From an uncultured Actinomycetota bacterium (lineage in GTDB: Bacteria; Actinomycetota; Actinomycetes; Mycobacteriales; Mycobacteriaceae), in assembly GCA_963828065.1 (NCBI GenBank), contig CAWHDL010000011.1, positions 2,537 to 66,536 of the forward strand: DNA of 64,000 nt. Reading direction: 5' to 3'. A model generated the notes under the pieces. That model searched no databases. It was not told the origin of the DNA and saw nothing but the letters and a program-made list of their open reading frames with translations. Positions 17,433-64,000 of the stretch are shown here, piece after piece. The number at the start of each line of letters is the position of its first letter. Position 1 is the first letter of the stretch. The position numbers and the translations under genes were made by a program.

Positions 17433-17500
17433 CCACTGCGACGGGCCGCGGGGAAAACTGACGCCAATTTCACCATGTCAGCATCGGTAAGGTTGGCCGC

Positions 17501-19009: not shown

Positions 19010-19078
19010 CCCCGGAACATATTTGATAATGAAACAACCAGCGCGGACATCGTCCATCAGCGGTGTGAGGATGACAAT

Positions 19079-25267: not shown

Positions 25268-25280
25268 CTTCAAAGTCCGC

Positions 25281-25357
25281 TGTAGGTTCCCATTTTGAGT
25301 GTCATATTCCCATTCCGGATGTCATCCCGATGTCATTTATGACATGGAAATGGGAAT
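25281..25357 (+). repeat. tnsA-proximal (Tn7R-type) end with three putative TnsB-binding sites
   Basis: Direct sites at 25285-25305 and 25306-25325 (TTCCCATTnnnnnTGTCAT) and an inverted site at 25339-25357. Palindrome ATGTCAT-TT-ATGACAT at 25330-25345. Confidence 0.65.
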
Positions 25358-25665: not shown

Positions 25666-26484
25666 TTGTGGTCCAGGGATTTACTGATGCCGCCTCCCAG
25701 ATCGACGATCGCAGACGCCGGTGTGGGTGTGACGAAGGCGCGGCCGATGAAGAAAAATGCCAAGAGTGTCGCTGGTTCTGCTGAGGCGTGCTTTAAGCGA
25801 TCCGACGGCCAGGTCGAGGTAGTGGCGTGGAACGACTTGGACCCCAACGCCGTAGCCGAAGGCCGGCCATGGCGGACTTTCCCTTGGTATCTCGGGCAGA
25901 AGAACTATTCAGGGCTGTATTGGTGCGCCACTGAATCCCGATTGGTCGGATACGAGTCGCGTTTGGAGTTGACTCGGCTGGTGATGGCCGACTTCGACGT
26001 GGCGGCAAAGCGGATCGTAAGTCAACCATTTCGGCTCACCGCCACCAACGGCGAAGAGCGCATTCGCCGGGTCCCCGACTATCTCGTGATTACCGAGGCC
26101 GGTGTGTTTGTAATCGACGTGACGCGCGCAAGCAAGTTGGAGAGACCCGAATTTGCTGGAGTCTTGGAGCAGACGCGCCAGATCGTGGAGTCCCGGGGGT
26201 GGATCTACGAGATCGCCAGCGAGCCCGCACGAGTCGAGTACAGCAACATCCGTTTCCTTGCCGGCTATCGGCGGCCCTGGTTGTTCAAGCCCGAAGTTCT
26301 GGCTGAGGTGAGGCAGGTCGCGCAGACGGTTCCTGAACTAACCATAGGGGAGATCAGCTCGCGTACAACGCTTCCCAGGCCGACTGCATTGCCGGCCCTG
26401 ATGCATCTGCTGTGGCGGCAAGAGTTCCGTGTTGATTTGACGCACAGACTCTCGCCGCACACGATGGTCCGGACGATGGCATGA
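25666..26484 (+). CDS. tnsA: TnsA-like transposase endonuclease subunit
   Basis: E/D/K restriction-endonuclease-like motifs (GYESRLE, VPDYLV, VIDVTRASK). ATGA overlap with tnsB. Start uncertain (TTG 25666, ATG 25687 or 25747). Confidence 0.7.
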   Translation: MWSRDLLMPPPRSTIADAGVGVTKARPMKKNAKSVAGSAEACFKRSDGQVEVVAWNDLDPNAVAEGRPWRTFPWYLGQKNYSGLYWCATESRLVGYESRLELTRLVMADFDVAAKRIVSQPFRLTATNGEERIRRVPDYLVITEAGVFVIDVTRASKLERPEFAGVLEQTRQIVESRGWIYEIASEPARVEYSNIRFLAGYRRPWLFKPEVLAEVRQVAQTVPELTIGEISSRTTLPRPTALPALMHLLWRQEFRVDLTHRLSPHTMVRTMA

Positions 26485-28661: not shown

Positions 28662-29863
28662 CCAGATCAGTCGCGAAACCATCGCACCGGCAGCGTAGTT
28701 CGCAAGACCCTCCACTGCGCAGCCGCAATTCCGAGAACCACGACCCAGTGGGCGCGCCAAAGGTCACGCTGGACAACCTCACAGTGTCTCGCAAGGAAGG
28801 GTTCCAAGCCAAGGCAGAGGCACCCAAGCGTGAACAACCGGAACTGTTGACAACCAGACAGCTCGCAGCGTTCAGCACCCATGCTCGCCGTGAGTACAAC
28901 GAGCAGCGCAACCTCTGGCACGCGAACCTGCCGACCATCAACACCTCACAGCTGCTCCAATTGCGCGAGGATCTCACCGACATCGTGGCCAGCAACCAGC
29001 ACGACGGTGACAAAGCCAAGGGCGCGATCGCCATCGAAGGCAGCGCCGGGATCGGGAAGACCTTCGCAACACTGGATTTCGCGTACGGCTACCACAACGA
29101 CCAGATTGCCCAGCATGGCCGCCTGACCAGGGACGGAAACGAACGATGGCCGGTCTGCCGCGTCGGTATGTCGGGCAACACCGGCATTAAGGACTTCAAC
29201 AGAGCGATGCTCGGGTTTTACAACCACGCAGGCATCAAGCGCGGCACCGCCGTGGACTTCGCCAACCGGGCACTGGACTGCGTGCTGTCGTGCGAGACGA
29301 AGCTGCTCATCGTCGACGAACTGCACTTCCTCAAACAGCGGACCACGAGCGTGCAGATCAGCAACCAGTTCAAATACATCAGCAACGAATTCCCCGTCAC
29401 CATCATCTTCATCGGTATCGGGCTGCGACAACGCGGCCTCTACAGCGACGGCACCTATGCCGACGGCATACTCGGCCAAAGCGGACGACGCATCACAGCA
29501 TTGAGGCTGCGCGAATTCACGATCGACACCCCCGAGCATCGCCGTGAATGGCGCCAACTGTTGCTGGCCATTGAGAAGCGCGTCGTACTGGCACGCAAGC
29601 ACCGGGGGATGCTGGTCGATCTGTCGTACTACCTGTTCGAACGAAGTTCGGGCCGCATCGGCCCGCTGACCACCTTGATCAATCGTGCCTGCCAACGCGC
29701 GGTCCGCACCGGCGTCGAAGGTATCGATCAGGATCTGTTCGACAGGGTCCGCACCGACGCGGCCTCCGAGCAGCAACGCCCGGAGATGCGGGTCAAGATC
29801 CGACATGCTCAGCGGGAGTTGCTGACGCCACGATCGCGCAGGCCGCGGCCGCGACCTTCGTGA
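28658..29863 (+). CDS. tnsC: TnsC-like AAA+ ATPase
   Basis: 401 aa. Walker A GSAGIGKT, Walker B LLIVDELHF. ATGA overlap with tnsB. Confidence 0.8.
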   Translation: MTRSVAKPSHRQRSSQDPPLRSRNSENHDPVGAPKVTLDNLTVSRKEGFQAKAEAPKREQPELLTTRQLAAFSTHARREYNEQRNLWHANLPTINTSQLLQLREDLTDIVASNQHDGDKAKGAIAIEGSAGIGKTFATLDFAYGYHNDQIAQHGRLTRDGNERWPVCRVGMSGNTGIKDFNRAMLGFYNHAGIKRGTAVDFANRALDCVLSCETKLLIVDELHFLKQRTTSVQISNQFKYISNEFPVTIIFIGIGLRQRGLYSDGTYADGILGQSGRRITALRLREFTIDTPEHRREWRQLLLAIEKRVVLARKHRGMLVDLSYYLFERSSGRIGPLTTLINRACQRAVRTGVEGIDQDLFDRVRTDAASEQQRPEMRVKIRHAQRELLTPRSRRPRPRPS

Positions 29864-29915: not shown

Positions 29916-32276
29916 GTGAGACGGACACTGCCCGTGCGAGTCGAGCCCATGCCCGGCGAAGCGTTGGAGTCGTGGTTGGCCGCATTCGCCACCCGTATGA
30001 ACGCCACCTGGGGCGAGGTCCTCGACGCCGTGCTCCCCGTCGGTGCGGACGGGATCGCCAGCACCCACCGCGGAGCGGTATTGACCACAGGCCTGACCGT
30101 CGAAGAGCGGGAGAGTATCTCGACCGCCACGGAAGTCAACGTCGCTGATCTCGACGCGATGACCTTGATGGGCCATTACGGCAGCCCGATGATGACGACC
30201 GACGCGCGCACCGGCCGGGCACGGACCCCGTGGGGCTTGGTGTATCGGCAGCGGTTCTGCCCCTTCTGCATGAAGGCTGCTCCGGGCCGCCGCAAGCTCG
30301 AATGGTTCCTGCCGTGGATCGCGACCTGCATTGAACATCGCTGCTTTCTGGTCGATTCGTGCCCGCAGTGCGCTCAGCTGCAGCTCGCCGCGGACTGGTT
30401 CAGCCGCCGGCTGTATCCACATCCGGACCGCTGCTCCCGGTTGGTCAAGGGCGAGCCGCATAATCGCCGGTGCACAGCGCGGCTGTCGCGCGCTCGCCCC
30501 GATAAGCTACGACCGGGACATCCCGTGCTGACCATGCAGCAGACGCTCACCGAGCTCCTCGCCGCGGATGCAGTCGATGCGGGCGTCTACCGCGTAGCGC
30601 CGGTGTCAGCGGAGCAGCTGCTCATCGATGTGCGCGTGCTCGGGAACTGGATAGTCAGAGCACCCAACCCCACTGACGTGATCGAACTATTCGGAGGCCG
30701 CGCGACCGATCACGAGATCGGCCTGTGGCGCCGACGCCTGCACCTGCTGGCGAACACAACTCACACCTACGACGAGAACCAGGACGTGGCGAGCGCGACG
30801 CGGGTAGCGCTCGCCGCGCCGGCGGCATGGGTCGGCACCGGAGTGGCCGCAGCCCTGACCGTGCTGATGCGGCCCTCGCTCGAGGATGCCGGTCGCGCCT
30901 TCCGGGCAGCCACGTCCTCTGCACCGGCCAGGGAGATTCGATATCGGACCCGAGTCTCTGGACTGACCCACAGCGCGGCGGTGACCGCCGTGGATCTCAA
31001 GGCTAGGGCCGCGGACTTCACGGTGATCGAGGAGTTGCGCTACCGGACGTTTACTCATCTGCCGCGGCTGCCCGACACCCGGCGGTTTGCAACCAAACAC
31101 GCGATGCTGCACGCGGTGCCCACACTGTTCTGGCCCGAGTGGGCGTTCCGGCTCGACACGGAAGACTTACCGTGGGGCACCGCCCGGCAAGTGATGTCAC
31201 GGCTGCTACTCACGATCGGCTGCGTCATGTCGACACCCGAACTAGAACGACACCTGCACTCCACCGTCGGAGCTCAGCGCATCGCCGAAGCAGCCAACAA
31301 CTTTCGCGCCCATCCGAATTGGGAAGGGATCATCACCGCGCTGCTGCGGCTGCACGAACACCTGCAGGCACACCCACCGCCGATCGACTACCAGCGTCGC
31401 CGCACCCTGAACTACGATCACCTGCTGCCCGAGCAACAGTGGACACACCTGGTCGCCGAAGAAGGTCTGCGCACATCGCCGACGACCGCGGCCGCCGCGC
31501 GACTGTGGCTCATCGAACAGCTCAGCGGCGCCCCGGTGCCCAATACGCCGCAGGCGTTGCACTGCCGGGGAGTGTGCACCGACCGGATGAGGACAACCCT
31601 CACACCCCAGCTGGTCCGAGCACTTAATGCAGTCAGCGCCGACTATTTAGGAAAACAGGGAGTCTCGGGTGAGCCCCTGACCTGGGTACCGCCGCTGAGT
31701 CTCCTCGAGGGTCTGAATCTGCCTGGGAAACCGCCGGAGACGATTGAGCCGAACTCAATGTACAAACTCCTCGACGCCGGCCTTACCGTGACTGCCCTTG
31801 CCCACAGACTCGACGCATCCGTGTGGAAGGTCCGCTACCAGCTCGAACACCACCCCATTCCTAGCGCCGACGTCCGAACCTGGTCACCGAAACGGATCAA
31901 AGGACGCCGTCGAATCGGCACCCGCGAACGCGTGCGGGCATTGCTGCCCGAACAGAAGCTGCGCGACCTCCACGAACATCAAGGGTTAACCTTCGCGCAG
32001 ATCGCCGGCCGCCTCGAGCTTCCGCTGTCCTCGGGCTACTTGGCTCGGGTGGTGTCCCACCTAGCCATCGAGTACGGAATCCACCATCGTCGCCAACCGC
32101 TAGGAGAATTGATCACCGCGGATTGGATCCACCAACGCCACGTCGTCGAGCGCAGAACGCTTGGTGTGATGGCCGACGAAATCGGCGTTTCTGACTCGAC
32201 CATCGGGAAGTGGGCCCGAAAATTCGGAATCCCGGTTCTCATTGGAAGCGGCGCCCTCTGCTCGACCCGCGTGTGA
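29916..32276 (+). CDS. tniQ: TniQ/TnsD-family target selector (786 aa)
   Basis: N-terminal TniQ signature (VEPMPGEALESWLAAFA) and Cys cluster CPFC...CIEHRC...CPQC. C-terminal HTH-like segments (LTFAQIAGRL, MADEIGVSDSTIGKWARKFGI). Confidence 0.8.
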   Translation: MRRTLPVRVEPMPGEALESWLAAFATRMNATWGEVLDAVLPVGADGIASTHRGAVLTTGLTVEERESISTATEVNVADLDAMTLMGHYGSPMMTTDARTGRARTPWGLVYRQRFCPFCMKAAPGRRKLEWFLPWIATCIEHRCFLVDSCPQCAQLQLAADWFSRRLYPHPDRCSRLVKGEPHNRRCTARLSRARPDKLRPGHPVLTMQQTLTELLAADAVDAGVYRVAPVSAEQLLIDVRVLGNWIVRAPNPTDVIELFGGRATDHEIGLWRRRLHLLANTTHTYDENQDVASATRVALAAPAAWVGTGVAAALTVLMRPSLEDAGRAFRAATSSAPAREIRYRTRVSGLTHSAAVTAVDLKARAADFTVIEELRYRTFTHLPRLPDTRRFATKHAMLHAVPTLFWPEWAFRLDTEDLPWGTARQVMSRLLLTIGCVMSTPELERHLHSTVGAQRIAEAANNFRAHPNWEGIITALLRLHEHLQAHPPPIDYQRRRTLNYDHLLPEQQWTHLVAEEGLRTSPTTAAAARLWLIEQLSGAPVPNTPQALHCRGVCTDRMRTTLTPQLVRALNAVSADYLGKQGVSGEPLTWVPPLSLLEGLNLPGKPPETIEPNSMYKLLDAGLTVTALAHRLDASVWKVRYQLEHHPIPSADVRTWSPKRIKGRRRIGTRERVRALLPEQKLRDLHEHQGLTFAQIAGRLELPLSSGYLARVVSHLAIEYGIHHRRQPLGELITADWIHQRHVVERRTLGVMADEIGVSDSTIGKWARKFGIPVLIGSGALCSTRV

Positions 32277-32611
32277 CCCGCCTCCTCGAGGCACTCTCCA
32301 CTGAGCCGGGAGACTTTCCAGCAGGGATGCAGACGGCCGCCGCATGGGTGCACATCCCGCGTTTCGCCGTCGCCGGCAGCTATGGCAAGTTCACACGCGT
32401 CGCCGAGGCACTCGGATGCCGCAAAGAGCGGTTGAGCGAGCAGATCGGTCGCATCGAAGCCGATTTGGGGCACACCCTCGTCGAGCGCGCCGTGTCACGC
32501 CAACATCCGATGACGCTGACCAGCTTGGCGAGGAACTCGCACAGGCCGCCAGACGCATCGATGGACCGTGACCTCCGCGACGCGCAGGAAGAGGATTTCG
32601 CCGAACGCTAA
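32273..32611 (+). CDS. small LysR-type winged-HTH-only protein
   Basis: FAVAGSYGKFTRVAEALGCRKERLSEQIGRIEADLGHTLVER matches the LysR N-terminal HTH, but there is no effector domain. GTG 32273 overlaps the tniQ TGA (GTGA); the alternative start is ATG 32327. Confidence 0.45.
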   Translation: MTRLLEALSTEPGDFPAGMQTAAAWVHIPRFAVAGSYGKFTRVAEALGCRKERLSEQIGRIEADLGHTLVERAVSRQHPMTLTSLARNSHRPPDASMDRDLRDAQEEDFAER

Positions 32612-32761
32612 CGGGATCGCCCCGCATCGACGTCGGCGGCGGACTGAGATGTAAATCCCAACTTGAGTTCCTTACGAGGCTATAGCGGGCTCAGGCAACT
32701 ACCGGGCATACGCAGCGTCCGATCAAATGCCGCGCACATACGCGCATAGGCGTGCTAGTCT

Positions 32762-47199: not shown

Positions 47200-47534
47200 G
47201 ATCGTCGGCGAAGCATGCGGCGATCGCGCCACGTCACCTCGGTCTGCGGGCTGTCATCGCCAAGTCCTTCGCCCGCATCCACTGGCAGAACCTCGCCAAC
47301 TACGGGGGTGTTGGCCCTCGAGTTCGAGAATCCCGGCGACTACGACACGATCGACCAGGGCGACACACTGGCATTCAACAACTTCGTGACGCCCTTGCGA
47401 ACAAGGACACCCTGCAGGTTGACAATCTCACCAAGAAGTCGACCTTCACTGTGCGCCAAAGGCTTTCATCACGACAGGTGCAGGATGTGTTAGCGGGCGG
47501 ATTGATTGCCCGGCTGGCACAAGAAGAGAACTGA
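47200..47534 (+). pseudogene. frameshifted C-terminal fragment of an aconitase-family gene
   Basis: Collinear with 53465-53829 (..[30 protein letters not shown].. and ..[28 protein letters not shown]). It has a 1-nt insertion (tacggggg) and a 1-nt deletion (ctggcattc) relative to the intact copy. Confidence 0.7.
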
Positions 47535-47772
47535 CGCGGATACCGCGGTCAGTACGCTGCTTTCGTTCTGTTCGCATCTGCTTGCGGCATAATCGGCCGC
47601 CGCATGTAACCCGCTCAGCGCCGTCGGCACATCGCAGTCACGTGACGAAAGAGTGCTTGTGGGTCGGCCCTACGCGTGTCGGCGGAGGCGAGCCCACCGA
47701 AGAGCGGTCGAAAGGCATGCCGACCACCTCTGAAGAAATGACACGAATCTGAGACGAAATCCCGATGACATC
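47200..47772 (+). repeat. direct repeat copy A (aconitase 3' end plus inner part of the transposon distal end)
   Basis: Near-identical by eye to 53465-54072. Identity stops at ..cccgatgacatc (47772 / 54072). Confidence 0.8.
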
Positions 47773-48061
47773 TGCGCCGGCCGGGTCGCCTCGGCATTGA
47801 ACCGCGAGGTGTCGTAAAACACACCCTGTCCCGCGGTCCAATGATCGCTTCTCGGGTTGGTCGTGTCTTTACCGCCAGCGCCGGATTCCAGTACCGGTCA
47901 GCACCAGCCCGAGGATTGCCGTTAGCGGCAGCCCATGACGGGCGCTCGTGGTGATGTGTTACCCCGTCATCGATGCCACGCTCTCGTTGTGAATGGATCG
48001 TCCGGCTCGGCGGGCGACGAACCATCAAAAGACATAGCCACCCGACCAGGAGACCCCCCAG

Positions 48062-51873: not shown

Positions 51874-53829
51874 ATGTCTTTTAACGTCACCCGCAAGCTG
51901 ATCGGCTCGCACCTGGTGTCCGGTGAGATGACGCCGGGCGAGGAGATCGCTATACACATCGATCAGACGCTGACGCAGGATGCGACCGGGACGCTGGTGA
52001 TGCAGGAACTCGAGGCGCTGGGGCTCGATCGGGTTCGCACCGAGGTGAGCGTGCAGTACGTCGATCACAACCTGCTGCAGACCGATGAGAAAAACGCCGA
52101 GGATCACGAATACCTGCGCACCGCGGCGGAGCGATTCGGCCTGTGGTTCTCCAAACCCGGTAACGGGGTGTCACACCCGACGCACATGCAGCGGTTCGGG
52201 ATTCCGGGCAAGACGATGGTGGGGTCGGATTCGCACACCCCGGCCGCCGGTTCGCTGGGCATGCTGGCGATCGGTGTGGGTGGGCTGGAGGTGGCGTTGG
52301 CGATGTCTGGGCGACCGCTGCACATTCGCATGCCGCAGGTGTGGGGTGTGCGGGTCGACGGCGAGCTGCCGGAGTGGTGTTCGGCCAAGGACGTGATTCT
52401 GGAGATGTTGCGCCGTCACGACGTCAAGGGTGGGGTGAACCGGATCATCGAGTACCACGGACCCGGTTTGGCGAGTCTGACCGCGATGGACCGCCATGTG
52501 ATCGCCAACATGGGCGCCGAACTGGGTGCGACCACGACGGTGTTTCCCAGTGACGAGGCCGTGCGTGAGTTCCTGCGCGCCGAGGGGCGCGAGGGCGACT
52601 GGGTCGAGGTGGTGTCCGACGAGGGCGCCGGCTACGACATCGAGGAGACTATCGACCTGTCAAAGATCGAGCCGCTGATCGCAATGCCGTCCTCGCCGGG
52701 CAACGTGGTGCCGGTGCGCGAGATCGCCGGCGAGGAGATCGCGCAGGCGGTGATCGGATCCAGCGCCAATCCCGGACTTCGCGACTTCGCGATCGCGGCG
52801 GCGATCGTGGCCGGACGGCAGACCGCACCGCAGGTCAGCTTTGACGTCAACCCGACATCCCGCGAAATACTGGCCGACCTGACGAAGATGGGCGCAATGA
52901 CCCAACTGGTGATCGCTGGGGCAAGGATCCATCAGGCGGGGTGCATGGGTTGCATCGGCATGGGCGAAGCCCCGGCGTCGGGTCGTAACTCGCTGCGCAC
53001 CATGCCACGCAACTTCCCCGGCCGGTCGGGCACCAAGGAGGACTCGGTCTGGTTGTGTTCGCCGGAAACCGCTGCCACATCGGCGTTGACGGGGGTGATC
53101 ACCGATCCGCGAGACTGGGCGCGTCAGGCGCAGATGGACTATCCCAAGCTCGATCTACCCGAGCAACATTCGGTGAACACCGCGATGTTCGTGGCTCCAC
53201 TGGATGCCGAGCAGGCACGCCACGTCGAGCTGGTGAAGGGATCCAACATCTCGAGTCTGCCGGAGTTGTCGCCGCTGCCCGACGAGGTAGAGGCGCCGGT
53301 GCTGCTCACGGTCGGCGACAATATCTCCACCGACGAGATCTCCCCGGCCGGCGCGCGAGCGCTGCCGTTTCGCTCCAACATCCCCAAGCTAGCGATGTTC
53401 AGCTTCACCCAGATCGACGAGTCCTATCCTGAGCGGGCACAGCAGGCCGAGGGAACCGGTCACATCGTCGTCGGCGGCGAGAACTACGGTCAGGGTTCTT
53501 CTCGCGAGCATGCGGCGATCGCGCCACGTTACCTCGGGCTGCGGGCTGTCATCGCCAAGTCCTTCGCCCGCATCCACTGGCAGAACCTCGCCAACTACGG
53601 AGTGTTGGCCCTCGAGTTCGAGAATCCCGGCGAGTACGACACGATCGACCAGGGCGACACGCTGCGCATTCAACAACTTCGTGACGCCCTTGCGAACAAG
53701 GACACCCTGCAGGTCGACAATCTCACCAAGAAGTCGACCTTTACTGTGCGCCACAGGCTTTCACCACGACAGGTCCAGGATGTGTTAGCGGGCGGATTGA
53801 TTGCCCGGCTGGCACAAGAAGAGAACTGA
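51874..53829 (+). CDS. aconitase-family hydratase (~650 aa)
   Basis: ATG 51874 follows GGAGGGAG. Motifs MVGSDSHTP, Fe-S Cys ligand context GCMGCIG, and swivel-domain GENYGQGSSREHAA. Confidence 0.8.
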   Translation: MSFNVTRKLIGSHLVSGEMTPGEEIAIHIDQTLTQDATGTLVMQELEALGLDRVRTEVSVQYVDHNLLQTDEKNAEDHEYLRTAAERFGLWFSKPGNGVSHPTHMQRFGIPGKTMVGSDSHTPAAGSLGMLAIGVGGLEVALAMSGRPLHIRMPQVWGVRVDGELPEWCSAKDVILEMLRRHDVKGGVNRIIEYHGPGLASLTAMDRHVIANMGAELGATTTVFPSDEAVREFLRAEGREGDWVEVVSDEGAGYDIEETIDLSKIEPLIAMPSSPGNVVPVREIAGEEIAQAVIGSSANPGLRDFAIAAAIVAGRQTAPQVSFDVNPTSREILADLTKMGAMTQLVIAGARIHQAGCMGCIGMGEAPASGRNSLRTMPRNFPGRSGTKEDSVWLCSPETAATSALTGVITDPRDWARQAQMDYPKLDLPEQHSVNTAMFVAPLDAEQARHVELVKGSNISSLPELSPLPDEVEAPVLLTVGDNISTDEISPAGARALPFRSNIPKLAMFSFTQIDESYPERAQQAEGTGHIVVGGENYGQGSSREHAAIAPRYLGLRAVIAKSFARIHWQNLANYGVLALEFENPGEYDTIDQGDTLRIQQLRDALANKDTLQVDNLTKKSTFTVRHRLSPRQVQDVLAGGLIARLAQEEN

Positions 53830-54072
53830 CGCGGATACAGCGGTCAGTACGCTGCTTTCGTTCTGTTCGTATCTGCTTGCGGCATTTTCGGCCGTGCCAT
53901 CTAGCGCGCTCGGCGTCGTCGGCACATCGTCGTCACGTGACGAAATAGTACTTATGGGGGTGTGTCGGCCAACCCGTGTCGGCGGAGGCGAGCCACCAAA
54001 GGGGCGGTCGAAAGGCATGCCGACCACCTCTGAAGAAATGACACGAATCTGAGACGAAATCCCGATGACATC
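53465..54072 (+). repeat. direct repeat copy B (intact aconitase 3' end plus inner part of the distal transposon end)
   Basis: Partner of 47200-47772. Confidence 0.8.
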
Positions 54073-54139
54073 ACCTGGGACAACCTGCATCACAGCAGGT
54101 CAAGGAACCGCGCGATGACACGAAATTTGCGACCCTACA
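54038..54139 (-). repeat. distal (Tn7L-type) end of the element
   Basis: Terminal site atgacacgaaatttgcgaccctaca (54115-54139) ends in ACA. Further ..TTCGTGTCAT-type half sites lie at 54038-54072. Confidence 0.6.
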
Positions 54140-54144
54140 GCCAC

Positions 54145-54222
54145 TGTCGGTTCCCATTTCGGATGTCCAATTCCCATTTCAAATGTCCACCAGATGTCCA
54201 CAGTTGGACACGAAAGTGGGAT
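54145..54222 (+). mobile_element. solo, diverged second copy of the tnsA-proximal Tn7-like end (remnant of a neighbouring element)
   Basis: TGTCGGTTCCCATTTCGGATGTCCA (54145-54169), ATTCCCATTTCAAATGTCCA (54170-54189), palindrome TGTCCA-CAGT-TGGACA and an inverted site at 54205-54222. Same architecture and orientation as 25281-25357, with TGTCCA in place of TGTCAT. Confidence 0.6.
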
Positions 54223-54481
54223 GTGCACCGCGGATGGAGTGCTTGCCCAGTACCGCGCGTCGGGGCGGCCCTTCACCGCTGCCGGATATCGGCCAGGCCC
54301 ACGTGTTTCCGAGCACGACAGGGAGTCTCGGGTGAGCCCCTGATGTCGTATGTCTGTTGCTCAGGGCGTCCGCACGCGCCGCGAACGAACACATCAGCGG
54401 GCGACGCAGAATGGGGACCGGACTCTGCCACCAGTGTCGGCCCGTCTCCTTAACCAAGGCCTCTCAGCCCAGCGACCTCCT

Positions 54482-56980
54482 TCACACATGATCGATGACC
54501 GCGTGCCTTTCGGCCTGGTCCTCCCGGGTTTTCACCGGGTCGAGGATGCGGTAGGCGAGGAGTTTGATGCGGTCGCTGATGAGGAACCAGGCGAGGGCGT
54601 ATGCCCACACTGCGGCTGCCCACTTCCAGCCGAGTGGGGTCATGAACAGCCCGTACACAGCGATCAGCGTCGCGATTGCCTGGGTGCCGAGGACGGCGAT
54701 CAACAAGATGCGGGCCGGGCGGATGGACCAGAAGGGTCCTCGGGTTCGGGTCAAGAAGATGGTGAGGTGACCGGCGACGGACAGCAGGAGATACATCAGG
54801 GTCTGGACGCGCGGGTGGCCGAGGTCGAAGACGCGGTCACCCAGATAGAACAGGCCAAACGCAGCGATCGGTCCGACCACCCCCAGGACCGTGGCGATCC
54901 CGAGTACCAGGCGCATGTTCCAGGCTTCGGGCTTGTTGGCGTAGTGGACGTTGTCGTAGGAGATGGACAGGATGGCGCCGTCGTTGAGCAGGGCGAGCAT
55001 CACGATCATGATGGCGGTGAGTGGGTAGAAGTTGAAGACGAGGATCGCCAGGGTCACGAACAGCAGCACCCGCAGCGTCTCGGCGATGCGGTACATTGCG
55101 TAGCTGTTCATTCGCTGAAAGATCTTGCGGCTCTCCTTGATCGCGTCGATGATCACCGACAGGCCCGGGGTCAGCAGCACGATGTCGGCGGCCGCTCGGG
55201 CGGCGTCGGTGGCCCCGGATACGGCGATGCCGCAGTCCGCCTTTTTCAGCGCGGGGGCGTCGTTGACCCCGTCGCCAGTCATTCCGACGATGTGGCCGCG
55301 TTTCTGCAGCACGTCGATGATGTGGTACTTGTGCTCGGGAAAGACCTGGGCGAAACCGTCGGCCGCCTCGATGGACTCGCCCACCGCCGCCGATTCGCTC
55401 TTCTTCACCTCACCCAGGCCGGTGGCGTCGAGGATGTTGGTGCCCAGCCCGACCTTGGCGGCGGTTTCCTTGGCGATGGCCAGCGCGTCCCCGGTGACCA
55501 TTTTGACGGTGACGCCCATCGCTCGTGCGGTGGCGATGGTGGCTGCAGCGTCGTCGCGGGGCGGGTCGAACAGCGGCAGCACGCCGACGAACTGCCAGTC
55601 GCCGTCCCCGTCACGGCGTGCCACGCCCAGGGATCGGAATCCCCGGGCGGCGAAATCGTTGACTGCCCTGTCAGCGGCGGGTTTGATCTGCGCGGCGTTG
55701 GCGGCCAGTGCCAGGATGACCTGCGGGGCTCCCTTGGTGACGGTGAAGGTGGTTGCGTCGGGGCCGGTGACGGTGGCCTGGGTGCGTTTGTGCACCGGGT
55801 CGAAGGGTTGGAAGTGGGTGATCATGTAATCCTGCAGAGCCTTGGTGTCGTCGAGGCCGCCGAGGACGGCGAGGTCGATGGGGTCGTCGTTGTCCGCGCG
55901 GGAGGCCAGCGCGCCGTCGAGGACGACCGTCGCGGGGGTGACGGTGTCGATGCTGAACGGGGTGCCCAACGTCAAAGAATTCTGGGTCAGGGTGCCCGTC
56001 TTGTCCGCGCACAACACATCCACGCCGGCAAGTTCCTCGATGGCGACCAGCCGGCTCACGATGGCCTGTTTCTTGGCCAGCAGACGCGAGCCGACAGCCA
56101 TCGTCACCGACAGCACGGTGGGCATCGCCACCGGGATCGCCGCCACGGTCAAGACCAGGGCGAACTGCAGCGTGGTCAGGATTGCGTTACCGCGCAGCAG
56201 GGAGGCGACGACGATGACCGTGACCAGCGCGACGGCCAAGATGATCAGGTAGTTGCCGATCTTGAGCACGGCGCGTTGGAAATGGCTGACGGTGTGCGCG
56301 TCGGCCACCAGCTCGGCGGTCTTCCCGAAGTAGGTGTGGGTGCCGGTCGCATAGACCAGGGCACCGATCTCACCTTGCCTGATGATGGACCCGGAGAACA
56401 CGGCCTCACCCGCTGCACGGGTGGCGGGCAGCGACTCCCCGGTCAGCGCGGACTGATCGACCTCGACCTCGTCACCGTCGAGCAGCCGGGCGTCGGCGGG
56501 GACAATGTCACCCAGGCGCAGCCGGATGACATCACCGGGCACCAGCTCCCGCGCCGGCGCGTTGACCCATGCGCCGTCACGGGTGACGCGGGCGTTGATC
56601 GCCAGCTTCGCCTTCAGGGCGTCAATGGCGTTGCCGGCCTGCCGTTCGGAGGTATATCCGACCACCCCGTTGGCCAGCAAGAGCAGCAGGATGATGAAGA
56701 AATCCGGCCAGTGCCTGAGCGCGCCGGACAAGATGACGGCGATCTCGATCATCCACGGGATCGGGCCCCAAAAGTAGCGGAGGAACTTCAACAGCGGGTT
56801 GGTCTTGTGCTCGGCGATCTCATTGGGCCCGTACCGCTCCAACCGTGCCACCGCCTCAGCCTGACTCAACCCGCCCGGTGAGTAGCCCAACTCTGTTTCG
56901 ACCTCGGGCATGGGCGCCGACTTCAGATCGAGCTGCCCCGCCGGGGTGACGGGCCCAGACTGCGGGGCGTCAGTGGCCAT
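54482..56980 (-). CDS. P-type ATPase (plasma-membrane H+/Mg2+-type, P3-like)
   Basis: 832 aa. Motifs CADKTGTLT, MVTGD and GMTGDGVNDAPALKKAD, with ~10 TM helices. Confidence 0.9.
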   Translation of the reverse strand: MATDAPQSGPVTPAGQLDLKSAPMPEVETELGYSPGGLSQAEAVARLERYGPNEIAEHKTNPLLKFLRYFWGPIPWMIEIAVILSGALRHWPDFFIILLLLLANGVVGYTSERQAGNAIDALKAKLAINARVTRDGAWVNAPARELVPGDVIRLRLGDIVPADARLLDGDEVEVDQSALTGESLPATRAAGEAVFSGSIIRQGEIGALVYATGTHTYFGKTAELVADAHTVSHFQRAVLKIGNYLIILAVALVTVIVVASLLRGNAILTTLQFALVLTVAAIPVAMPTVLSVTMAVGSRLLAKKQAIVSRLVAIEELAGVDVLCADKTGTLTQNSLTLGTPFSIDTVTPATVVLDGALASRADNDDPIDLAVLGGLDDTKALQDYMITHFQPFDPVHKRTQATVTGPDATTFTVTKGAPQVILALAANAAQIKPAADRAVNDFAARGFRSLGVARRDGDGDWQFVGVLPLFDPPRDDAAATIATARAMGVTVKMVTGDALAIAKETAAKVGLGTNILDATGLGEVKKSESAAVGESIEAADGFAQVFPEHKYHIIDVLQKRGHIVGMTGDGVNDAPALKKADCGIAVSGATDAARAAADIVLLTPGLSVIIDAIKESRKIFQRMNSYAMYRIAETLRVLLFVTLAILVFNFYPLTAIMIVMLALLNDGAILSISYDNVHYANKPEAWNMRLVLGIATVLGVVGPIAAFGLFYLGDRVFDLGHPRVQTLMYLLLSVAGHLTIFLTRTRGPFWSIRPARILLIAVLGTQAIATLIAVYGLFMTPLGWKWAAAVWAYALAWFLISDRIKLLAYRILDPVKTREDQAERHAVIDHV

Positions 56981-57091
56981 GATGGGTGTCCGCCTTTGGG
57001 GTCGAGTGTCGGGTGTCGCGTGTGGCAGGTTGGAATGGACTCATCGATCGTCGGCTGCCGTGGTGGCCGGCGAGCGGCGGTTGCGGTCGGG

Positions 57092-59464
57092 TCATTGTGG
57101 GGGGTTCCAGGTCCAGTTGCGGATTTCGGGGTGGTCTTGGCCGTGGGTGTTGATGTAGAGGGTGTGTTCGACGAGTTTGTCGGCCATGGTCTGTTTGAGG
57201 TAGTCGCCGGTGGCGCCGAGTTGCGGGAGCCGGTCGATGACGTCGCTGACGAGGTGGTAGCGGTCGAGTTTGTTCTGCACCCGCATGTCGAAAGAGGTGG
57301 TGATGGTTCCTTCTTCGTTGTAGCCGCGCACGTGCAGGTTGTGGTTGGTGCGCCGGTAGGTGAGTCGGTGGATCAGGGTCGGGTAGCCGTGGAAGGCGAA
57401 GATGATGTGTTTGTCGGTGGTGAACAGCGCGTCGTAGTCGCGATCGCTCAGTCCATGGGGGTGCTCGCTGGCCGACTGCAACTTCATCAGGTCCACGACG
57501 TTGACGACGCGGATCTTCAACTCGGGCAAGTGTTCCCGCAGGATCGACACCGCCGCCAGCACTTCGAGGGTCGGAGTATCTCCGCAGCAGGCAAGTACCA
57601 CGTCCGGTTCGGTGCCGCGGTCGTTTCCGGCCCATTCCCAGATGCCGATGCCTTCGGTGCAGTGCACCTCGGCTTGCTCGATGCTCAGCCATTGCGGCAT
57701 CGCGCGTTTTCCGGCGACGATCACGTTGACGTAGTGGCGGCTGCGCAGGCAGTGGTCAGCCACCGACAGCAGGCAGTTGGCGTCCGGCGGCAGGTAGACC
57801 CGCACGACGTCAGCTTTTTTGTTGACGACGTGGTCCAGGAAGCCGGGGTCTTGGTGGGTGAAGCCGTTGTGGTCTTGCTGCCACACGTGGGAGGCGAGCA
57901 GGTAGTTCAGCGACGCGATGTCACGGCGCCACGGCAGTTGCGCGGTGACCTTGAGCCATTTGGCGTGCTGGTTGAACATCGAGTCGACGATGTGGATGAA
58001 CGCCTCATAGCAGTTGAACAGCCCGTGCCGTCCGGTGAGTAGATATCCTTCCAGCCAGCCTTCGCTTTGATGCTCACTGAGCATCGAATCCAACACTCGC
58101 CCCTGCAGGGCGAGGTATTCGTCGTTGGCGACGGTGCGGGCCTCCCATTGCCGGTCGGTGACCTCGAAGACCGCGCCGAGCATGTTCGACAGGGTTTCGT
58201 CGGGTCCGAAGAGCCGGAAGTTGCGTGCCTCGTCGTTGAGCCTGATGACGTCACGCAGGAAGGCACCGAGCACCCGGGTGTCTTCGGCGTCCACCGCGCC
58301 GGGCGAGGCCACCGCAACCGCGTAGACGCGAAAGTCGGGCATCCGCAGATCGCGCAGTACCAGCCCGCCGTTGGTGTGCGGGTTGGCGCCCATCCGCCGC
58401 TGCCCGCGAGGGGCGAGCGCAGCCAGGTCGGGCAACAGCCGCCCGGCCTGATCGAACAGCTCGGTGGGTTTGTAGCTGCGCATCCAGCTGTCGAGTAGTT
58501 CGACGTGCCCGGGATGCTGCTCGTCGACGAGCAACGGCACCTGGTGTGCCCGGAAGGTGCCCTCGATCTGCTGGCCGTCCACGACCTTGGGTCCGGTCCA
58601 GCCTTTCGGGGAGCGCAACACGATCATCGGCCACCGTGGGCGGGTGGTGTCGCCGGCGGTCCGCGCCTTGCGTTGGATGGCGTGGATGCCCTCGATGACG
58701 GTGTCGAGGGTGGTGGCCATCAGTTCGTGCATGTCTTCGGGGTCATCACCTTCGACGTAATGCGGGTCCCAGCCGCAGCCGCGCAGGAACTGGTCGAGCT
58801 CTTCGTGTTCGATGCGGGCCAGCACGGTGGGGTTGCTGATCTTGTAGCCGTTCAGATGCAGGATCGGCAGCACCGCCCCGTCGCCGACCGCGTTGAGGAA
58901 CTTGGTGGAATGCCAGGCGGTGGCCAGCGGGCCGGTTTCGGCCTCGCCGTCGCCGATCACGCACGCCACGACCAGGCCGGGATTGTCGAACACCGCGCCG
59001 AACGCGTGGCTCAGCGAGTAACCCAGTTCCCCGCCTTCGTGGATCGATCCCGGAGTCGTCGGTGCCACATGGCTGGAAATACCGCCGGGGAAAGAGAATT
59101 GGGTGAACAGCTTCTTCATCCCGGACTCGTCCTGACTCACGTCGGGATAGATCTCGGTGTAGGAGCCCTCGAGGTAGGTGTTGGCGACCAGCGCCGGACC
59201 GCCGTGGCCGGGGCCGGCGACGTAAAACATGTCCAGGTCGTACTTCGTGATGACCCGGTTCAGGTGCACGTAAATGAAGTTCTGCCCCGGCGTGGTGCCC
59301 CAATGCCCCACCACGAGCGGTTTCACATCCGAGAGCGCCAGCGGTCGCTTCAGCAACGGATTGTCATACAGATAGATCTGGCCGACCGACAGGTAATTCG
59401 CCGCCCGCCAGTACGCGTCCATCTTGCGCAGCAGTTCAGGTTCCAGCGTTCTAGTGCTCGTCAT
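57092..59464 (-). CDS. xfp: phosphoketolase (xylulose-5-P/fructose-6-P)
   Basis: ATG 59464 follows AAGGAG. Motifs [26 protein letters not shown] and [11 protein letters not shown]. The ORF track's 173-aa N-terminal extension was rejected. Confidence 0.9.
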
Positions 59465-59499
59465 GCGGTGCTCCTTTGGTCGACTCGCATGTACGCGGT

Positions 59500-59910
59500 T
59501 CAGACGGGGGAATGCTGAGCGTTGTGCTTGTTCGTGTGTGATCTGATGGTGGTGCCGGCGGTTCCGGCGAACAGGGCTGAAGGCTCGAAGAGTGCCCCGA
59601 TCCCGGCGCGGTGGTCGGTAGCGTTGACGCACCGGCGCCAGGATTCGATCTTGGGTGCCATGGACCCGGCGGGAAACCTCATCGCGCTCAGATCGTCGAG
59701 ACTGAGTTGGGCTGGCGGTGTGGCCGCCGCGGTCCCGAAATGCTCCATGACCGCGCCGACGTTGGTGAGCATGAGCAGCCGCTGAGCGTGCACGGTGACG
59801 GCCAGGAGCGACGCAACATAATCTTTGCCGACAACAGCTTCCACCCCCGCGGGGCGGCCGCCGCCGTCCTCGGTGACCGCCGCGCCGCCGCCTCCACCGC
59901 AGATCACCAC
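59500..59910 (-). pseudogene. carbamate kinase C-terminal fragment
   Basis: [31 protein letters not shown] and [12 protein letters not shown] match the C-terminal half of carbamate kinase. There is no N-terminal half in the 117 bp up to the USP gene. Confidence 0.55.
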
Positions 59911-60027
59911 TGTTCGGGCGCGGCCACAGGGTGGGTGATCGACTGCTGGGCGAACTGAACTGCCGGTATCTCCGAAGACTCAACCCAGCTGCCTGGGCAG
60001 CACACCGACATCATGTGGGGGGTTGCG

Positions 60028-60585
60028 CTAGCCGTTCGCTGCCCGCTGCGGGGCGGGGATGACCACCACGGGGCACCGCGAATGGGACACGACGTGTTGG
60101 CTGACCGAGCCGAGCACCGCCCCGACGAATCCGCCGTGTCCGTGAGAGCCGACCACCAGCATGTCGCCTCCGCTGACGCTGTCGAGCAGCACCTGGGCGG
60201 CGTGTCCTTCCACCGCCTCCTGCGTGATTCGGACCGGATCCGTCGCGCTGTCCGGGTCGGATTTGGTGGCCTCGCTGACGGCGGCGTCCAGCAGCTTTTC
60301 CACCGAAGCAGCTGCCTCAGCGAACGCGTCTTCAGGCACGCCGACCTCCGGCTGATAGCCCAACGGGAACATGCTGCCCAACCCGGGGTCCACCCAAGGT
60401 GGATAGTACTGCCAGGCAAAGACCGCGTGGACGGGGATCTTGCGTGCCCGTGCCTCCCCGAACGCCCACCGCAGGGCGTTCAACGATCCCTGCGACCCGT
60501 CGACGCCGACCACGATCCGCCCGCTCTGCTGCGGTCCATCGGCAGAAGCGAGCGGCTGCGAGGATGATCGTCCAGTACTGGCCAT
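60028..60585 (-). CDS. universal stress protein (UspA family)
   Basis: RIVVGVDGS... and GSHGHGGFVGAVLGSVSQHVVSHSRCPVVVI ATP-binding motif. Confidence 0.8.
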   Translation of the reverse strand: MASTGRSSSQPLASADGPQQSGRIVVGVDGSQGSLNALRWAFGEARARKIPVHAVFAWQYYPPWVDPGLGSMFPLGYQPEVGVPEDAFAEAAASVEKLLDAAVSEATKSDPDSATDPVRITQEAVEGHAAQVLLDSVSGGDMLVVGSHGHGGFVGAVLGSVSQHVVSHSRCPVVVIPAPQRAANG

Positions 60586-60785
60586 AGGGCCATTATGGGT
60601 GCGCGGCCGCCGAGAGGGACACTCCGCGCTCGGCGACTGTCATGAGCGTGCGCGAGACCGCCGCCGCGAGTACCGCCGCTCTCGATGCCAACCGATTCCT
60701 CGGGCCCCATCGCCTGGCTAGGAGGGAACGGCAAAACCGCGCTGGCATGACAAAGCGAAAGGCAGCACCGCGGCCATATGGGCCC

Positions 60786-61085
60786 ATGCCCGTCTTGCAC
60801 ATCGAACACCGGATCGCCGACCTCGACACGTGGCTGCAGGACGTCGCCAGCCGCGCGCCCGCGCGAAAGCAGCATGGCGTTACCGCGGCGCACGTCCTTC
60901 AAGCTAAGGACGATCCGCAGTACATCGTGGAACTTGTCTTTTCCGACACAGCCGACGACGCAAACAAATACCGGACGTTCATGCGCGAACAGGCGTGGTC
61001 ATCGTCGTCGCCGGGACTGGCCAGCAATCCGCACGCCGTCATCCTCAACGAGGTGGTGGAAACCACCTCTAAATCTAAAGCTTGA
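60786..61085 (+). CDS. small hypothetical protein
   Basis: ATG 60786 (MPVLHIEHRIADLDTW..) inside ORF 60642..61085. No motif recognised. Confidence 0.35.
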   Translation: MPVLHIEHRIADLDTWLQDVASRAPARKQHGVTAAHVLQAKDDPQYIVELVFSDTADDANKYRTFMREQAWSSSSPGLASNPHAVILNEVVETTSKSKA

Positions 61086-61248
61086 CGGTCGGCGTAGGGA
61101 TGCACCGATTCGGGCGTTAGACCCTTTGCCACACCGAGCGCTGTCTCGTTCCTGATACCACCTTGGTGTGTGAATCAGAGCCATCGAAGTGGCGAGTCCC
61201 CGTTACTGAGTTCACCCGGTTTTAGAGTCGGGTTGTCTTTGTTCGGAT

Positions 61249-62140
61249 TCAGTTGATCTGGCAGGCGACCGGGTGGTGGGTGTGCCTGCAAGTCGCAGCG
61301 TACTCGGCCGGCGTTCGGTAGCCCAGGGCCGAATGGCGGTGGCGGTGATTGTGCTCGTGTTTGAAGTCGCCGATGACCACCCGGGCCTCGAACAGACTGT
61401 TCCAGTGGTTGCGGTTGAGGCACTCCTTGCGGAGTCGGTTGTTAAACGATTCGATGTAGCCGTTGTCCCACGGCGATCCGGGCGGGATGTAGGACACTCC
61501 GACCTTGCCCTCGCAGAACCGTTGCAGCGCTTGGGAAACCAACTCCGGCCCGTTGTCCATCCGCAGCACCTTCGGCGGGCCGCCAGCGGCGGCGAACACC
61601 GCTTCGAGCTCGGTGACTAGCCGTTCGGCGGTGATCGAGCGTTCCACCACGTGCAGCAGCGAGACGCGGGTGTGCTCGTCGATCATCGACGCGATCTTGA
61701 TCGCCTTGCCGTCGATGGTGGAGTCGAACTGGAAATCGATCGCCCACACCACGTTCGGGGCATCGGCGTCGATCGGCGGGATCGAGGACACCCCGGCCCG
61801 TTTCCGCGGACTATGCACCCGCACCTGCAGGCCTTCCTCGCGCCACAGCCGGTGGACCTTCTTCTTGTTCACCTCACGGCGCTCGTCGTAGCGCAACGCC
61901 GCCCAGGCACGCCGGAACCCATGGCAAGGATGTTTGATGGCGTAGGCGCGCAGCCAGGCCCGCATCTCGGCGTCGGGATCGGCAGGGGTCTGCGCCAGTC
62001 GGCAGGCGCCGGTAGGTGGAGCGGGCCAGCCCAACCGCCTTGCACGCCAACCGTTCCGACATGCTCAAACTGGTGTCTTGAGCATGTCGACGGCGCGGCG
62101 CTTGGCAGCTGGGCTCAGAATTTTCCCTTGGCCACCTCAC
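61249..62140 (-). pseudogene. IS3-family orfB (integrase-core transposase) with an additional frameshift
   Basis: The N-terminal HTH part (SERLACKAVGLARSTYRRLP) is in the frame of ORF 61874..62140. The rest (..QTPADPDAEMRAWLRAY..DDE core) is in the frame of ORF 61249..62034. Confidence 0.6.
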
Positions 62141-62333
62141 GCAGCGCGTCCTTTTCCAGTTCGGCTTCGGCCAACAGCCGCTTCAGCCGCGCGTTCTGCT
62201 CGCGCAGTTCCTTGAGTTCCTTGGCGGCGTCGGTGTCCATCCCGCCGTAAGCGCGGCGCCAGTTGTACAGCGTCGCCGCCGACACGCCCAGCTCGGCGGC
62301 GATCTCCTCACCGATCTTGCCTTCGGCAGCCAA
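62115..62333 (-). CDS. IS3-family orfA (probably N-terminally truncated)
   Basis: ..IGEEIAAELGVSAATLYNWRRAYGG.. HTH. Only a TTG start is available, and a stop lies a few codons upstream. Confidence 0.5.
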   Translation of the reverse strand: MAAEGKIGEEIAAELGVSAATLYNWRRAYGGMDTDAAKELKELREQNARLKRLLAEAELEKDALREVAKGKF

Positions 62334-62349
62334 TTCGTCAGCTCGGACA

Positions 62350-62466
62350 TCGCTGGGTCGGTTGATCTTTTTCGATCAGCCGGGCACGGGCGCGTCCGAT
62401 CCGGTCTCGACGGGTGCATTGCCGACGTTGGAGCAATGGGCTGACAGCATCACCGCTAGCCGATGA
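62350..62466 (+). pseudogene. alpha/beta-hydrolase gene fragment
   Basis: ..RLIFFDQPGTGASDP..LEQWADSI.. resembles the region after strand 4 of alpha/beta hydrolases. No N-terminus (the IS abuts) and no continuation after 62466. Confidence 0.3.
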
Positions 62467-62593
62467 ATTCCCGGACGGTGTCTGGTCGGCCAGCTCACGG
62501 GCCCGGGCCCGCGACCCCGTCGGCCAGTGACATTGTCGCGTACAGGCTCATGGTGCGGGCCAGGCTCGAGTGCGACTCGAATACCGCCGCAGG

Positions 62594-63097
62594 TCAGCGG
62601 GACGAGGGCGGCCACAGACCGCGGGACAGGTCGCGATCGAGCAAACGAGCGCTGACATCGCCATCGTAGAAGAGGTTTGGGTCGAAAGCATCGCCGAAGT
62701 GCTTGGCCAGCAACGACGAGAACAGCAGGGCGGCCGACTGCGGCCGGTGATTCATGACTAGTTGACTGGTCTCGCCTGCGTCGTTGAAGTACACGACGAC
62801 GAAGTTGTAGATCTCGACTCCGGACGGATGGTAGGCCTCGCTGCCACGGATGCGGGAGCGGTAGTCCTCCAAAAAGAGGTCGCCGCGCATGCCGTAGAAG
62901 CGGAAGTCCTGGAACGCGTAGAGGCTCCGCGCGAAGCTCAGCATCTTCCCGACCTGTTCTGCACCACGCAATTCGCCGTTGAACACGGCGCCTTGGAGGA
63001 TGACATCGTCGGCGAGGTTGTCCAGCCAGTGTGGGTAGTAGTCCAGGTGTAGCGCCTGGTTTTCGAGCTTGCGGGTGGTCTCGTTCGGTGTGGTCAT
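62594..63097 (-). CDS. hypothetical protein (possibly NTF2/SnoaL-like)
   Basis: 167 aa with balanced composition and a good ATG. The family assignment is a guess from size and pattern only. Confidence 0.4.
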   Translation of the reverse strand: MTTPNETTRKLENQALHLDYYPHWLDNLADDVILQGAVFNGELRGAEQVGKMLSFARSLYAFQDFRFYGMRGDLFLEDYRSRIRGSEAYHPSGVEIYNFVVVYFNDAGETSQLVMNHRPQSAALLFSSLLAKHFGDAFDPNLFYDGDVSARLLDRDLSRGLWPPSSR

Positions 63098-63137
63098 GGC
63101 AGTTGTCTCCTCAGTTTCGTTTTCGGGTCTTGCGGCG

Positions 63138-63992
63138 TCAAGAGCCGCAGATGGGACTGATCAGCGTCCAAATACACCTACTGCCGCAACCATCAAATGT
63201 GCGGTGCCGATGTCGGAGCGCTGGCGGACGGTAGCGATCAAATTGCCCAGGAGTTTCGGCTGGCTGCCATCGGTAACCGGCTTCGTCTTCGTAGTCAATT
63301 GTGACGCTCAGCGTGTAATCCGGCCTCGCGGTTGTGTAGGCCATCACGGTGTGCTGATGGGGCGGCAGGACGCGCTGCCACTCTGTGGCGAAGTGACCAA
63401 TCAAAGCGTCCCGCAATGCTTGTGTGAACGCTTGCGGTTTTCGGCTACTTCGCTGCTGCGAAGCACCCGCCAAAGCCATCTCGCCGAATGGCGGCTGTTG
63501 AAGACTGCCGTCTAATGATCCCGATGGCGCCGCAAGGATGGACCGATCGAAAACTTGATCAAGCGTCGTAGTGTTGTCGACTTGCTCACAGCCATCGGGC
63601 ACTTCCAAACCGTTGGTATCTATGGCTTGGACCTCGACCGCAAGGATCGTCGCCATTGCGTTGCTTGCGTTATCGATACCGACCGTCCACCACGAACCGC
63701 CAAACATCGGGGTTCTCACACAAGAGGGAATTACCCTTCGAGCTTGAGCCGTAACACGTTTCCGATGCGCTCGCCGGAGCGCATCCATCTGTGCCTTATG
63801 GCGTCTGCTCTCTGCGACTGCTTTTCTGGGCTCCCGGATCGCGGCTACATATAGTGCGATGAGAACGCCGACAAGGGTTGCAACCGCCGAAATCGCTTGG
63901 ATTTCCTGAAGCCAAAGCGACGTTTGATTGACAACATCTGATGTGCCTTGTGCGCTGATACGCGCCACGGACAGTAGATCGTGATTTGTCAC
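63138..63992 (-). CDS. hypothetical membrane-anchored protein
   Basis: 284 aa with a single N-terminal TM (AISAVATLVGVLIALYVAAI). No motif recognised. Confidence 0.4.
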   Translation of the reverse strand: MTNHDLLSVARISAQGTSDVVNQTSLWLQEIQAISAVATLVGVLIALYVAAIREPRKAVAESRRHKAQMDALRRAHRKRVTAQARRVIPSCVRTPMFGGSWWTVGIDNASNAMATILAVEVQAIDTNGLEVPDGCEQVDNTTTLDQVFDRSILAAPSGSLDGSLQQPPFGEMALAGASQQRSSRKPQAFTQALRDALIGHFATEWQRVLPPHQHTVMAYTTARPDYTLSVTIDYEDEAGYRWQPAETPGQFDRYRPPALRHRHRTFDGCGSRCIWTLISPICGS

Positions 63993-64000
63993 TGCAGCTC

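Follow-up and report, generated by a model that had tools for sequence, protein, structure and literature searches.

Genomic islands at attTn7 are reportedly built from successive Tn7-like insertions, as Parks and Peters are said to have described in J Bacteriol in 2007, with newer elements inserted on the target-gene side of older ones and with extra ends and degenerate elements left behind. Those islands differ from the locus that we describe here in phylum, target gene and end sequences. Stacking at one attachment site, together with degenerate derivatives, is already established for Tn7-like elements.

Tn7, which occupies attTn7 (glmS) in Escherichia coli, has a selector whose target sequence is offset from the insertion point and survives insertion (PMC11406308), and resident ends normally repel further insertion, a property called target immunity (PMC11406308; PMC11014353). 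In Acinetobacter baumannii, Tn6022/AbaR elements resemble our locus in that multiple insertions lie within or beside each other at one site, and rearranged derivatives build and diversify a genomic island (PMC11014353). Tn6022 differs from the element described below in targeting comM via TniQ plus TnsF and in showing strong immunity when tested (PMC11014353). Xer-type recombination additionally acts on Tn6022/AbaR (PMC11014353), whereas no recombinase or dif-like site was identified here. The actinobacterial Tn7-like clade is experimentally uncharacterized (Benler et al., 2021, PMC8649781). In a non-exhaustive literature search, neither dnaB nor Mycobacterium was mentioned in the full texts of PMC8649781 and PMC10293859, nor ESX in the full text of PMC10293859; the passages covered do not describe the stacking habit, and the literature on non-autonomous Tn7-like elements yielded nothing useful.

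The window analyzed here is a 64-kb stretch of DNA, ending at position 64000, from an environmental Mycobacterium. We conclude, with a probability of roughly 0.7, that its positions 54115–54222 are the junction of two Tn7-like transposons of the same orientation, stacked at one site in the 3' flank of eccE. We call the gene-proximal element E1, with a tnsA-proximal end L1 and a distal end R1, and the gene-distal element E2, with the end L2. Our “L” end is the “right” end in Tn7 nomenclature, L1 corresponding to Tn7R and R1 to Tn7L.

E1 (25281–54139, 28.9 kb) is autonomous and carries tnsA, tnsB, tnsC and tniQ/tnsD, contiguous and in that order on the plus strand between 25666 and 32276. The product of tnsA (25666–26484) scores 218 bits against a cut-off of 110 with the curated NCBIfam model NF033179 TnsA_like_Actin, which assigns E1 to the actinobacterial Tn7-like clade. 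The DDE transposase gene tnsB (26481–28661) matches Pfam HTH_23 above cut-off and rve below cut-off. Its 1343 homologues at E<=1e-20, many of them named Mu transposase C-terminal domain protein, include Pfam PF09299 (Mu transposase C-terminal) proteins and a TnsA-TnsB fusion; they are widespread in Mycobacterium, Nocardia, Streptomyces and Kitasatospora, and the closest in the protein collection stands at 98%. The AAA+ regulator gene tnsC (28658–29863) matches Pfam TniB and AAA_22 above cut-off, as the target selector gene tniQ/tnsD (29916–32276) does Pfam TniQ.

Alignment with relatives L009 and L094 shows that the tniQ of the window is shortened relative to the dnaB-located copies, whose TniQ has 923 aa and a C-terminal LysR-like HTH. 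Owing to a 1-nt deletion in the window (GGTTCaTCATT), TniQ terminates at 32276, and the HTH part is displaced into another frame, in an open reading frame at 32210–32611; the LysR-type HTH matches are weak, far below the family cut-offs. This loss of frame could be decay, a split gene or an assembly error. Two more indels, which cancel each other, lie in the 3' region of tniQ (32100–32700), where L094 has different indels.

The cargo of E1 includes a RES-domain gene adjoining an HTH gene, a PIN-domain gene, an IS110 transposase, a 1816-aa kinase/GAF/histidine-kinase protein, a molybdopterin oxidoreductase and an aconitase. An orphan copy of the aconitase 3' end with two inner right-end sites lies on the plus strand at 47212–47773 and is 92–98% identical to 53507–54072. 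This 561-bp fragment has a break on either side, is missing the terminal 67 bp and matches the right-end profile at positions 6–54 only; it is a putative relic of another E1-like right end, which suggests that a further E1-like copy was once stacked or nested here. When we looked for the cargo genes of E1 and E2 in other loci of the family, none was found. A search of the plasmid collection with 53400–57000 gave distant ATPase homologues only, so the window is not a known plasmid.

Both ends of E1 can be placed to the base. L1 (25281–25357, plus strand) has a TGTAGG terminus, two direct TTCCCATT..TGTCAT sites, one partial site and one inverted site. The left boundary is fixed at 25281 because the homology of four independent relatives (L007, L008, L009 and L094; about 95% nucleotide identity overall) begins exactly there. 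R1 (54025–54139, plus strand; right-end profile E 2e-23) has three spaced ATGACA..GAGAC-type sites and stops at ...CCTACA. The two termini are inverted repeats (TGTAGGTTCCCA.. against TGTAGGGTCGCA..), and the sites, tightly packed in L1, are spaced out in R1.

Compared with Tn7, E1 shares the set of TnsA, TnsB, TnsC and a TniQ-domain selector, the TGT...ACA termini, the several transposase-type repeats per end, packed tnsA-proximally and spaced distally, and the insertion in a single orientation a short way behind a conserved gene, which the tnsA-proximal end adjoins. Its family also shares the 5-bp duplication, for which relative L022 is the example. E1 thus has the defining features of a Tn7-like transposon, save its own imperfect 5-bp duplication. 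It differs from Tn7 in its target gene, eccE (dnaB in sister copies), in the length of the selector (786–923 aa), in that no TnsE was detected in it, and in the inverted inner site of the proximal end.

The gene beside L1 is eccE (23561–25267, plus strand; Pfam EccE), which closes an ESX (type VII secretion) locus and has mycP, eccD and eccB upstream; eccE homologues at 92–98% identity occur in other contigs. A 13-bp gap (25268–25280) separates its stop codon from E1, and the last five bases of the gap, TCCGC (25276–25280), are the left flank of E1. GC content drops at 25281 from 73–76% to 57–68% and remains low over the rest of the window. The closest copy of E1, in L094, is 97–99% identical at the nucleotide level across tnsA–tniQ and sits 17 bp past the stop of an eccE only 56–60% identical in amino acid sequence to that of the window. 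Because near-identical elements follow two diverged eccE genes, the two insertions are independent and eccE is a genuine attachment site. Three further contigs (L088, L089 and L090), with ESX loci 89–97% identical in nucleotide sequence and EccE 92–98% identical, carry a left-type end at the same spot and no tns genes. In L088 this end heads a 4.4-kb tns-less element that closes with a right-type end. L090 has the same left end, at the same position after eccE (CTTCTAAGTCCGC directly followed by TGTAGG), and its contig ends before the position of the right end in L088. In L089 the left end heads a 9.4-kb tns-less element that likewise closes with a right-type end.

The sister copies L007–L009, which are 90–98% identical to E1 in nucleotide sequence, tniQ included, lie 10–12 bp past the stop of an intein-containing dnaB, and many further relatives are also inserted after dnaB. 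Insertion of the E1 family downstream of a conserved gene is thus site- and orientation-specific, and the comparison of these copies points to the use of two attachment sites, eccE and dnaB, by near-identical elements. The 3' ends of dnaB and eccE, compared by eye for a common sequence, gave nothing convincing.

Some features of the surrounding genes may be recorded here. The arrangement of ESX genes in the window looks unusual against the canonical ESX order: a ParA/MinD-like ATPase gene (Pfam CbiA, 19079–20401) lies between eccB and eccD, and several non-ESX genes break up the locus between espG and eccB. A subfamily with TGTCCC sites (L004, L005, L045, L056 and L065) has its insertion point at the extreme 3' end of a gene for a membrane protein, prepilin-peptidase-like by eye, with the C-terminus ..LPLGPF..; in L004 the element's own TGTAG appears to provide the stop codon of the target gene.

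At the junction itself, E1 terminates in ...gcgaccctaca, that is, ...GCGACCCTACA, with its last base at 54139. Positions 54140–54144 read GCCAC, a 5-bp spacer that separates E1 from the second element, and the first base of L2 is 54145, where the sequence opens with tgtcggttcccatttcggatgtcca (TGTCGGTTCCCATTTCGGATGTCCA) and a TGTCGG terminus. The sequence-only reading had given this junction exactly, with CCTACA up to 54139, then GCCAC, then TGTCGG from 54145. L2 is a complete tnsA-proximal-type end of 77 bp (54145–54221, plus strand) with TGTCCA sites. As had been claimed, it has two direct sites (54151–54169 and 54171–54189), a palindromic pair (GATGTCCA cagt TGGACAC), given by a partial third site, and an inverted site (54205–54221). 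Direct counting likewise bore out that the first 25 nt are identical to those of L1 (25281–25305) at 19 of 25 positions and that TGTCCA stands in L2 at all three positions where L1 has TGTCAT. The gene-distal element is related to E1 but of a distinct type.

The resemblance of L2 to L1 was also recovered by formal alignment: a repeat search paired 25277–25334 with 54141–54198 at 78% over 58 nt. Exact copies of the motif TTCCCATTNNNNRTGTC number four in the 64 kb, two in L1, two in L2 and none elsewhere; at <=2 mismatches the motif has six matches in the window, a count reached in none of 100 shuffles. Finding ends by regular expression was too noisy, and profiles were used instead. An nhmmer left-end profile, for which four left ends from other genomes and no sequence of the window were used, matched the window only twice, at 54145–54226 (E 5.6e-13) and 25281–25336 (E 3.8e-10), both on the plus strand and from model position 1. 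Judged by these comparisons, the similarity of L1 and L2 is far beyond chance.

L2 also recurs away from E1. The same 77 nt are found at L002:271–347 (77/77 identical) and L018:6947–7023 (76/77, 98.7%), behind different right ends: in L002 the right end reads ..GTGGACACGAACTTTGAGAATCTACA and the spacer is 12 bp, and in L018 these are ..GAGATGAAACGCAAACTGAGAAGCTACA and 11 bp. Right ends of the family stop at ...CTACA, followed by unrelated DNA, in L080, L070, L088 and L022. For these two reasons L2 is not part of E1. The idea that 54145–54222 is internal to a longer distal end of E1, or resembles L1 by chance, is refuted by the copies of L2 that lack E1 in L002 and L018 and by the right ends that stop at ...CTACA; left-end profile E-values of 1e-13 or lower also speak against chance, and we regard this alternative as practically eliminated. 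As the sequence-only reading had proposed, the ends at the junction are those of two distinct Tn7-like elements that share one attachment site and are arranged head to tail with the same orientation. This site, downstream of eccE, is a genuine one.

If the two elements were stacked in succession, a layer of the L2 type should also exist without E1, and L089 supplies it. This contig is 97% identical in nucleotide sequence to 13635–25323 of the window and has an L2-like end (TGTCGGTTCTCAT..TGTCCA..) directly after eccE, with no E1; it is the state expected before E1 arrived. Among relatives the layers vary independently: L089 has the L2-like layer without E1, L088 and L090 have another tns-less element, and L094 has E1 at another eccE.

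Junctions of the same kind, a right end followed after 4–7 bp by a left end, were found in L010, L022, L037, L056, L061, L063, L067, L068 and L076/77. L022 reads, in order, flank, CCGCT, an element with tnsA and tnsB, CCGCT, a 2.5-kb tns-less element with one caspase-TPR gene, CCGCT and flank, which is the classic signature of several insertions at a single position, with 5-bp duplication. Tns-less elements with both ends are frequent in such arrays and lie at L022:9806–12338, L063:8722–14100, L010:12912–13133, L088:11704–16088 and L089:11722–21155; examples include a single 1654-aa open reading frame without a Pfam match and a 222-bp mini-element. Stacking is therefore common in the actinobacterial Tn7-like family, and the junction of E1 and L2 is real but ordinary. 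New insertions here lie 4–7 bp from resident ends, whereas Tn7 shows strong target immunity (PMC11406308). [quoted passage not shown]

The sequence-only reading had taken the spacer as the 5-bp target duplication, and at this junction the claim is not supported. The family does make perfect duplications, as the three copies of CCGCT in L022 show, but the flanks of E1, TCCGC on the left and GCCAC on the right, are identical at three of five positions. Because of this mismatch, a clean in-situ insertion of E1 with a 5-bp duplication is not demonstrated. Simple mutation is one possible source of the mismatch.

The mismatch would also be expected if the pair of E1 and E2 had been built elsewhere, at another eccE-type site or another site altogether, and had arrived as a unit running from L1 to the distal end of E2, in which case GCCAC would be a leftover from that previous site. 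The left flank of the E1 copy in L094, GCCTC, agrees with GCCAC at four of five positions, and the presence of the same L2 in three different arrays indicates that such ends move. However, an L2-like element is already present at this eccE in L089, at a locus 97% identical, so that stacking in situ is the simpler account, and the genome scan returned no composite copy elsewhere and no locus with both ends. We consider arrival as a unit improbable.

The flanks could instead stem from two insertions offset by 3 bp, if an internal deletion had fused two stacked E1-like copies into the present E1. This would refine stacking in situ and not replace it; the pre-insertion site would have read ..AAGTCCGCCAC directly followed by TGTCGG, with TCCGC and GCCAC overlapping. 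The orphan right-end fragment with the aconitase 3' end at 47212–47773 is consistent with such a history, and the reconstructed 16-nt gap, CTTCAAAGTCCGCCAC, is similar to the real 17-nt gap of L089, CTTCTAAGTCCCTCCGC. Against it, the fusion is purely a reconstruction, and the orphan fragment is broken on both sides and fits other histories equally well. We hold the fusion to be possible but would not bet on it.

In-situ stacking, the reading that we prefer, would follow from the geometry of Tn7-type insertion. By analogy with Tn7, the TniQ/TnsD-type selector of E1 would read the end of the target gene, whereupon TnsC would recruit the TnsA/TnsB transposase and E1 would insert downstream at a short, fixed distance, its tnsA-proximal end facing the gene. 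Because the recognized sequence would outlive insertion, a later element would land on the gene side, between the gene and the resident, and the distal end of the newcomer would come to lie a few base pairs from the proximal end of the resident. At our locus the resident would be E2, a related but heterologous element with TGTCCA repeats and a complete 77-bp end with four transposase-type sites; its cognate distal end would be similar to ...GGGAACCGACA. Points against this reading are the mismatched flanks of E1, the failure to find a right end of E2 in 54223–64000 or a tns-bearing element with L2-type ends, the dnaB site of the nearest sister copies and the shortened tniQ of the window.

What L2 belongs to is a separate question. 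Similarity to the other copies of L2 ends at a breakpoint at 54222, beyond which those copies run on as ..GGGAATTGTCCTGGT; the copies in L002 and L018 share 11 nt beyond L2 and then diverge from each other too. The remainder of the window (54223–64000) is tns-less and low in GC (57–67%, island-like), encodes a P-type ATPase, a phosphoketolase, a Usp protein and an IS3 transposase, and does not match the DNA after eccE in three relatives. As had been noted from the sequence, nothing tns-like follows L2, and the neighboring gene is the convergent P-type ATPase gene (54482–56980, minus strand); neither tblastn nor Pfam searches of open reading frames found TnsA, TnsB, TnsC or TniQ downstream of 54145. 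A distal end of E2 was sought in 54223–64000 with a degenerate terminal pattern, the site motif and the right-end profile at permissive thresholds, and none was found. The closest ATPase homologues (92%) lie in a different neighborhood with no Tn7-type ends, and their homology to the window ends at 54343, a limit that is uninformative about E2. Intact relatives with TGTCCA ends were sought, as had been suggested: a genome scan and a metagenome scan with TnsB alignment yielded no tns-bearing element with L2-type ends, only tns-less copies, namely those of L002 and L018 and the L2-like end of L089. A cognate transposase for L2 is thus hypothetical.

The sequence-only reading had inferred that the older element is almost entirely deleted. 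On that account an older autonomous element was lost from +78 to past its distal end, and the DNA from 54223 onward is unrelated to it; the sharp loss of similarity at 54222 and the lack of both tns genes and a right end in the remaining 9.8 kb agree with this. Yet 54223–64000 is unlike the DNA after eccE in the three relatives and has an island-like GC content, and in L088 and L089 the corresponding ends still head cargo that is closed by a right end. Only the tns module is demonstrably missing. E2 is probably not a nearly erased relic. Given the same downstream DNA, its GC content and the cargo elements headed by the ends in L088 and L089, E2 is better read as a tns-less element that extends past the window. 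Most likely it is a cargo element, degenerate or mobilized in trans, and 54223–64000 is probably its cargo or further island DNA.

The tns-less left ends of the family share an inner limit. In every one of them all four sites are retained and similarity to relatives breaks off within +78 to +89 nt, with breakpoints at 54222 in the window, at L002:359/360 and L018:7035/7036, at about +79 in L006 and at about +88 in L088 and L090. Another full left end begins 15 or 142 bp past the breakpoint in L006 and L002. In the L2-like end of L089 (L089:11722–11880), about 80 bp are inserted at the center of the palindromic site pair; at L089:21155–21200 lie a right end, CCGA and then a 5'-truncated second copy of the same L2-like end. 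Left and right ends in L088 and L089 have different site types, which suggests hybrids across stacked elements.

One tentative interpretation, which may well prove wrong, is that L2 is the conserved end of tns-less, cargo-only hitchhikers that are mobilized in trans and share arrays with autonomous Tn7-like transposons at eccE, dnaB and further actinobacterial sites. It fits the occurrence of the same 77-nt end beside three different autonomous elements, the single-gene tns-less element of L022 with its perfect 5-bp duplication, and the four-site array that such ends keep before they break at +78 to +89. If it were true, the family would be modular, with ends and cargo exchanged across a defined inner boundary, and target immunity would be absent or type-specific.

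The same two features, the 77 nt directly behind three different right ends and the four-site array with its break at +78 to +89, could also mean that the 77–89-bp left-end module is functional as a landing pad or decoy that draws heterologous Tn7-like elements to insert beside it. We think this very unlikely. Resident end sites repel insertion in Tn7 (PMC11406308; PMC11014353), Tn7 geometry puts the selector on the tnsA-proximal flank, here the one that faces eccE rather than L2, and an eccE site that recurs at a fixed distance from the stop codon suffices for placement.

Since stacked Tn7-like elements are an established route to genomic islands, a single junction adds little. The value of the locus is as an entry point to an uncharacterized actinobacterial Tn7-like family, for which it provides an intact element with base-exact ends. 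The use of both eccE and dnaB by near-identical elements would allow tests of how target choice evolves. Arrays that combine autonomous with tns-less elements are the rule in the family, which implies that immunity to further insertion is weak or specific to element type, and the 3' flank of the ESX locus is a hot spot of gene gain in environmental mycobacteria.
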